Shown here: piece after piece, positions 13,975 through 15,201 of the stretch
Layout of the letters: each line of letters starts with the position of its first letter
Position numbering within the stretch: position 1 is the stretch's first letter
Origin: Tannerella forsythia
GTDB lineage: Bacteria; Bacteroidota; Bacteroidia; Bacteroidales; Tannerellaceae
Reading direction: 5' to 3'
Assembly (NCBI RefSeq): GCF_001006485.1
Contig: NZ_JUET01000078.1
Span: 35,143-99,142 of the forward strand
Length of the DNA: 64,000 nt
Position numbers and translations under genes: made by a program
Notes under the pieces: generated by a model
Databases searched by the model: none
What the model was told of the DNA's origin: nothing
The model's input: only the letters and a program-made list of their open reading frames with translations

Positions 13975-15201
13975 ATGAAAACACAATGGATGTGTATCGG
14001 AATCATGGCTTTGATGGGCGCCTGCACTTCCGATCAGGAAACACCCAAGCCTCTGACTGAGGCTCATCCCATCATCTTGAAAAAGGCGGAAAAGATAGAA
14101 AAAGACAATGCCTTTGCCTTCGATCTGCTGCAAACGACACGCAAACACGTGACGGAAGCGAATGTCTTTATCTCGCCGTTGAGCGTAAGCATGGCGCTGA
14201 ACATGACCCTGAACGGAGCGGCCGGCGTCACGGCCGATGAGATGAAAACCGCATTGCGTGAGACCGGTTATACGATGGAAGATATCAACGAATACAGCCA
14301 TTCACTACGGGAAGCGCTCCTCAAAGTAGACCCTTCCACCACAATCGGAATGGCCAATTCGATCTGGTACAAACAAGGAGAATTGGTCAAGGAACCGTTT
14401 ATTCTGGCCAATCGCACGCACTACGATGCGGAAGTAAAAGCCGTTGATTTTTCATCGCCCGCCACCCTCCCGGCCATTAACGGCTGGTGCGCCCAAAAAA
14501 CGAACGACAAAATCACCAAGATATTGGACTATATTCCGGGAAATGCTTTTATGTATCTGATTAATGCCGTTTATTTCAAAGGCATCTGGGTGACTCAGTT
14601 CAAAAAGAGCGATACGAAACGGGCGCCTTTCCGCAAAGCGGACGGTACTACACAGGAAGTCAACATGATGGCGCAGAAAAGCACCTTCGGCTATACGACC
14701 GACGAGTGCTGTCAATACCTTGAGATGGACTACGGCAACAAAGCATTCAGCATGATCGTGATGCTGCCGAACGAAGGTCAGACAACGCGCGACGTGATCG
14801 AACAACTCGACAACAAGCATTGGAGCATGATTATAAAAGGCATTCGCCCAACACAAGTATCGCTGCGCATGCCGCGCTTCAAGACAGAGTGTAAATACGG
14901 GCTCGAGAAAAAGATACTGCCGGAGATGGGAATGAACGTGCCGTTTACGGAGACGGCTGATTTTCCCGGCATCACCGACGCTGCGATATTTATTTCACGT
15001 GTGATCCATAAGACGTTTGTGCAGGTCGATGAAGAAGGTACGGAAGCTGCTGCCGTAACAGCCGTAGAAATGGTAAAAACGTCATCCCCCTCTACCACTC
15101 CTATCAACTTCCACATAAACAAGCCGTTTGTTTTTGCCATACGCGAAAAGAGCACCGGCGTCATTCTGTTTATCGGAGAGATCGGGGAAGTGAAAGAATA
15201 G
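13975..15201 (+). CDS. Serpin (serine protease inhibitor) lipoprotein
   Basis: The start [17 protein letters not shown] is a lipoprotein signal. Serpin core motifs are [20 protein letters not shown] and the hinge/reactive-centre loop [41 protein letters not shown]. The ORF-track start at 13558 is an in-frame non-coding extension. Confidence 0.85.

Follow-up and report, generated by a model that had tools for sequence, protein, structure and literature searches.

The serpin gene of a 64-kb Tannerella forsythia window is almost certainly that of miropin

The gene at positions 13975–15201 of the 64,000-nucleotide stretch of DNA analysed here (the window) almost certainly (probability about 0.98, judged from sequence matches) encodes the miropin of T. 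forsythia itself, which takes it beyond the 'miropin-like' serpin of an oral or gut Bacteroidales that the original prediction had described. Miropin is already known and characterized: it belongs to the rare serpins of bacteria, uses multiple reactive bonds to trap serine as well as cysteine proteases from several clans, and protects a periodontal pathobiont. All of this has been published for exactly this sequence, to which the window adds no new knowledge. The present analysis shows which protein and which organism are involved, how the signal peptide, hinge and loop are built, where translation starts and that the upstream region is non-coding; inhibition, cleavage sites, surface display and the in vivo role are taken from the literature. 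The features discussed below, by position in the window, are as follows:

13975..15201, plus strand: miropin gene, 408 codons plus stop, serpin-family protease inhibitor (open reading frame, Pfam, PDB and GenBank)
13975..14025, plus strand: lipoprotein signal peptide; the first residue after it, Cys17, is predicted to be lipidated (lipobox rule and conservation in homologues)
15031..15060, plus strand: hinge of the reactive-centre loop (RCL), P17–P8, inhibitory type, residues 353–362 (sequence, homologues and consensus)
15061..15123, plus strand: reactive-centre loop, residues 363–383, a multi-site bait centred on V367-K368-T369
13634..13974, no strand assigned: non-coding divergent intergenic region of 341 bp between an arabinofuranosidase-like gene (minus strand) and the miropin gene (plus strand)
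15222..15250, no strand assigned: GC-rich hairpin GCCGC-gtaga-GCGGC flanked by an A-run and a T-run (found by eye; not listed by the scan)

The miropin frame is intact from the ATG at 13975 to the TAG at 15199–15201. A profile search matched residues 44–403 of the 408-aa protein to the Pfam family Serpin (PF00079; 357.8 bits against a cutoff of 27, E = 9.9e-107), and since the match covers profile positions 3–367 of 370, the domain is full-length, as had been predicted. No NCBIfam family matched the protein, which is thus left with no curated equivalog call. A search of PDB sequences returned 5NCS_A (E = 1.3e-251), to which residues 39–408 are 100% identical, the sole differences being a vector-derived GPLGS tag; the cleaved forms 5NCT, 5NCU and 5NCW likewise match the encoded protein. 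5NCS bears the label 'Serpin [Tannerella forsythia 92A2]'; the three cleaved forms are entered as 'Serpin-type proteinase inhibitor, miropin'. An exact-sequence look-up further matched all 408 residues to the GenBank entry 'serpin family protein [Tannerella forsythia]' (KKY61364.1, OLQ19979.1 and others), and the same exact protein, labelled T. forsythia in NCBI and UniRef, is present on 124 contigs. Eight metagenome contigs with the exact protein retain the gene order of the window and are 99.2–100% identical to it over approximately 21 kb, one of them being 100% identical across 21,227 bp, whereas the closest Tannerella loci from outside T. forsythia reach a DNA identity of only 85–93%. A scan of a genome collection did not retrieve the T. 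forsythia reference, and it was the exact-sequence look-up that established the organism. The identity to 5NCS, the exact GenBank match, the agreement over approximately 21 kb and the lower identity elsewhere together lead us to assign the window to T. forsythia and the gene to miropin, an assignment that no feature of the sequence contradicts.

The start of this protein bears the features of a lipoprotein. Its N-terminus carries a lysine at position 2, an uncharged hydrophobic core and the motif L-M-G-A-C ending in Cys17, which fits a PROSITE-PS51257-style lipobox rule and predicts lipidation, the lipobox being atypical at positions −3 and −2 (M and G). The signal, the cysteine and the acidic residues that follow are kept in the Tannerella homologues. 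Directly after Cys17 lies an acidic stretch, C-T-S-D-Q-E, with D at +4 and E at +6, positions at which acidic residues are conserved in the homologues; this stretch may resemble the Bacteroidota lipoprotein export signal, the match to the consensus being only partial. SignalP and LipoP have also predicted miropin to be a lipoprotein, and dot blot and flow cytometry placed it on the cell surface at 740–1480 molecules per cell (bioRxiv 10.1101/2025.09.05.674453), so that the surface display foreseen from the lipoprotein signal agrees with published exposure. Miropin, as Tanf_07655 / TF0781, has also been detected in outer-membrane vesicles (PMC4604654). The protein would leave the cytoplasm by the Sec pathway, receive its lipid on Cys17 and finally be flipped across the outer membrane to face outwards.

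The position of the signal peptide also bears on where translation begins. A mechanically called open reading frame of 547 aa (13558–15201) runs upstream of the miropin ATG, and the true product could in principle be this longer protein, with 139 additional N-terminal residues and the lipoprotein signal lying internally. The frame from 13558 is indeed uninterrupted and ATG-initiated, and one GenBank record (TPE18305.1) annotates it. However, over its initial 76 bases it runs into the start of the divergent gene at 11213–13633 (minus strand), GC content falls to 38% in the intergenic region that it crosses, in-frame stops occur in the extension in three of three orthologous Tannerella loci, and indels of 64–66 bp and 5 bp interrupt it there. 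By contrast, every orthologous locus retains the miropin ATG and signal peptide, with the signal beginning exactly at that ATG, which is also the start used by the gene callers on the eight contigs and by most GenBank records. We therefore regard the 547-aa frame as a mis-extension, a 547-aa product having almost no probability left, and flag the public T. forsythia record TPE18305.1 as a mis-extended annotation of the 408-aa miropin. The original prediction had correctly suspected that the open reading frame track mis-translates a non-coding stretch of about 330 bp; it called that stretch a transcribed leader in effect, a name that may be too strong for the 341 bp, which form a divergent promoter region.

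Within this region, related Tannerella share the approximately 100 bp that directly precede the miropin ATG. Such conservation would be expected of a promoter with a short untranslated region; less probably, these bases may be a dedicated regulatory element. A Bacteroidota −7 box (TAGTTTTG) at 13724–13731 on the minus strand fits the divergent gene and is the sole TAnnTTTG match in the 341 bp, the plus strand having none. A sigma-70 scan of the same 341 bp revealed no miropin promoter, and a combined −33/−7 pattern with up to two mismatches gave no plus-strand site there and was not enriched in the window. The TAnnTTTG motif itself is enriched in the window (49 observed against 31 expected, with 0 of 100 shuffles reaching 49), consistent with a Bacteroidota genome. 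A structured RNA leader was considered and rejected: the folding of the 115 nt nearest the gene was not superior to that of shuffled sequences (z = −0.71), Rfam returned no credible match in the upstream region beyond a sub-threshold lncRNA, and a terminator-like hairpin at 13887–13899 was itself discarded, being conserved in neither of the two orthologous loci L002 and L003.

The hinge has the form found in inhibitory serpins. Residues E353-E-G-T-E-A-A-A-V361 conform to the inhibitory P17–P9 consensus, reported as ExGTEAAAA (PMC8233489), with small, uncharged residues at P12–P9 of the kind that permits insertion of the loop, and thereby bear out the claim of an intact hinge (residues 353–362). 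In an alignment of 12 homologues of the Tannerella group, the scaffold, most hinge positions and the lipoprotein cysteine are invariant or nearly so. These observations weigh on the reading that the gene is instead a miropin look-alike, a serpin paralogue that has decayed or is non-inhibitory in the manner of ovalbumin. Divergent paralogues do occur in bacterial serpin families, the Tannerella serpins of 55–62% identity being an example, but the 100% identity to a crystallized inhibitor, the intact reading frame and the small residues at P12–P9 refute such a paralogue here and reduce its probability to about nil. The expectation of an inhibitory serpin instead agrees both with the hinge seen in the window and with the covalent inhibition published for the same protein.

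If E353 in the hinge is taken as P17, P1 falls on T369 and P1′ on S370, within the motif V367-K368-T369 whose codons lie at nt 15073–15081. The crystal structures give a less uniform answer: the cleaved chains end at K368 (5NCT), T369 (5NCU) and V367 (5NCW), the last being a K368A variant whose B chain begins ATSSPS. For the proteases Kgp and Tpr, K368-T369 (named P2-P1, in agreement with the hinge count) has been reported as the reactive bond (bioRxiv 10.1101/2025.09.05.674453); the 367-VKT-369 numbering of that preprint coincides with that of the window protein, and the published K368A mutagenesis primer matches window positions 15062–15092 save for two designed bases. The published answer is thus that there is no single P1 and that several reactive bonds around 367-VKT-369 serve, and it was because several bonds are really used that the original prediction could not confidently name one P1 by eye. 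The loop had further been described as extended, which is partly right: BLASTP against the C-terminus of human alpha-1-antitrypsin indicated a four-residue insertion, and the count from the hinge puts the additional residues on the primed side, with 15 residues rather than 11 from P1′ to the conserved proline of KPF.

Miropin acts as a suicide-substrate serpin: attack of a protease on the exposed RCL yields an acyl (or thioacyl) intermediate, after which insertion of the hinge into beta-sheet A leaves the enzyme trapped covalently. Several adjacent bonds around V367-K368-T369 can each serve as the reactive bond, and one inhibitor can therefore trap trypsin-, elastase- and subtilisin-like enzymes together with several cysteine proteases. 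According to the preprint, miropin is active against subtilisin, papain, trypsin, plasmin, neutrophil elastase and cathepsin G, a range ascribed to its plastic core and to the multiple active sites of its RCL, and earlier work had described complexes with serine proteases and papain (bioRxiv 10.1101/2025.09.05.674453). The same preprint used SDS-PAGE and mass fingerprinting to demonstrate that miropin forms covalent complexes with the gingipain Kgp and with Tpr, a calpain-like protease, and reported a miropin-null mutant that was constructed and tested in mice. The experiments that the original prediction had proposed, on surface display, inhibition and the reactive bonds, have thus already been published, together with structures and a knock-out. 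Miropin reportedly dampens the virulence of Porphyromonas gingivalis (2025 preprint), and on the bacterial surface it shields the cell from the proteases of host and neighbours in the periodontal pocket.

The genes flanking miropin are housekeeping or nutrient-uptake genes. Upstream lie a SusC/SusD pair and the alpha-L-arabinofuranosidase-like gene (11213–13633, minus strand); downstream follow DJ-1/PfpI, TonB-ExbD-ExbB, PdxJ, NAD kinase, the FopS sRNA and SecDF. No protease gene or mobile element adjoins miropin. A horizontal-transfer islet was considered and rejected, the miropin gene (48–51% GC) not differing from the adjacent genes in composition and the dip in GC being confined to the intergenic region; nor does recent acquisition of miropin find support, with synteny kept in Tannerella genomes that are 85–87% identical. 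Miropin and DJ-1/PfpI are convergent and lie 45 bp apart; the GC-rich hairpin at 15222–15250 falls within this gap and, from its appearance by eye, is probably a bidirectional terminator.

Several other features of the window were recorded in passing. The FopS-family Bacteroidetes sRNA (Rfam RF04319; 76.9 bits, gathering score 56) lies at 19610–19683 on the plus strand, flanked by the NAD kinase gene and secDF, with a TATCTTTG −7 box just upstream at 19598–19605. A full-length bacterial class A RNase P RNA occupies 51974–52348 on the plus strand (234 bits) and has a TATCTTTG −7 box at 51959–51966; a search of all 64 kb detected no tRNA genes. A strain-variable islet (22933–24355) separates secDF from the pyruvate:ferredoxin oxidoreductase gene and here contains small lipoprotein-like open reading frames at 23405–23638 (77 aa) and 23702–24049 (115 aa) and several −7 boxes; in contigs L007, L011 and L012 its place is taken by unrelated DNA that carries genes of 260/265 aa and 86 aa. 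At the junction 5367/5368, some T. forsythia contigs carry an insertion of approximately 0.8 kb that is absent from the window (positions ~580–1395 of L007, L009 and L012, between an ABC-2 permease gene and a UbiA-family gene); it encodes an HTH_3 protein of 66 aa and a protein of 155 aa, and looks like a toxin–antitoxin pair.

A homologue search matched more than 6,000 serpins, in which the close relatives, at 78–90% identity, come from other Tannerella and a large set at 55–62% identity includes proteins of T. serpentiformis and oral taxon 808. In the alignment of 12 homologues, the part of the RCL between P7 and approximately P10′ is hypervariable. One relative, the Tannerella sp. MAG A30_bin.21 (L001), carries two serpin genes at the locus (positions 10001–11221 and 11256–12473 of its contig, 31 bp apart), each of which is approximately 90% identical to miropin. 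The copies differ mainly in the RCL (VVEEVKTSIDPSP versus VVETENTSAGPSP), the difference amounting to EEVKTSIDPS versus ETENTSAGPS. Copy 2, which adjoins DJ-1, is the positional orthologue. Copy 1 is accompanied by approximately 215 bp of upstream sequence like that of miropin, and the DNA alignment suggests a tandem duplication in which this upstream stretch was included. Tandem paralogues with different loops are only a mildly new observation, and the pair is only a small addition because PMC7296668 already cites an unpublished analysis in which at least 12 serpins with differing RCLs were attributed to other oral Tannerella taxa. A tentative proposal, which we consider rather unlikely, is that the miropin locus diversifies rapidly across the genus, with the changes concentrated in the loop. 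T. forsythia, unlike the MAG, has a single miropin copy at the locus; if the proposal were true, its single multi-site loop and the multi-gene repertoires of its relatives would represent alternative solutions to the same protease pressure.

Compared with known systems, the window protein is the same as the described T. forsythia miropin (PDB 5NCS, 5NCT, 5NCU and 5NCW; Tanf_07655 / TF0781), with nothing differing at the protein level, and T. forsythia contigs share its residue numbering, RCL and gene neighbourhood. Miropins of other T. forsythia strains show single substitutions outside the RCL, for example I41V and Q174R, and ancient and modern strains reportedly have the same RCL (PMC7296668). 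The homologues in canine-oral COT-023, Tannerella sp. MAGs and T. serpentiformis (55–90% identity to miropin) share its fold, lipoprotein signal, hinge and C-terminal tail; at two of their loci (86–87% identical) the upstream gene is the same, and at one of these, L003, so is the downstream gene order. These other Tannerella differ from T. forsythia miropin in their hypervariable P7–P10′ segment and, in one MAG, in the tandem copies at the locus. Classical single-site serpins (human alpha-1-antitrypsin, SERPINB3/B4 and conserpin), which the PDB search matched to miropin at E values of 1e-57 to 1e-35, share with it the serpin fold and the inhibitory hinge at approximately 30–37% identity in the compared segment. 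They have a loop four residues shorter and a single P1, whereas miropin offers several reactive bonds and inhibits across protease classes, and, unlike the classical serpins, it is lipid-anchored to the bacterial surface.
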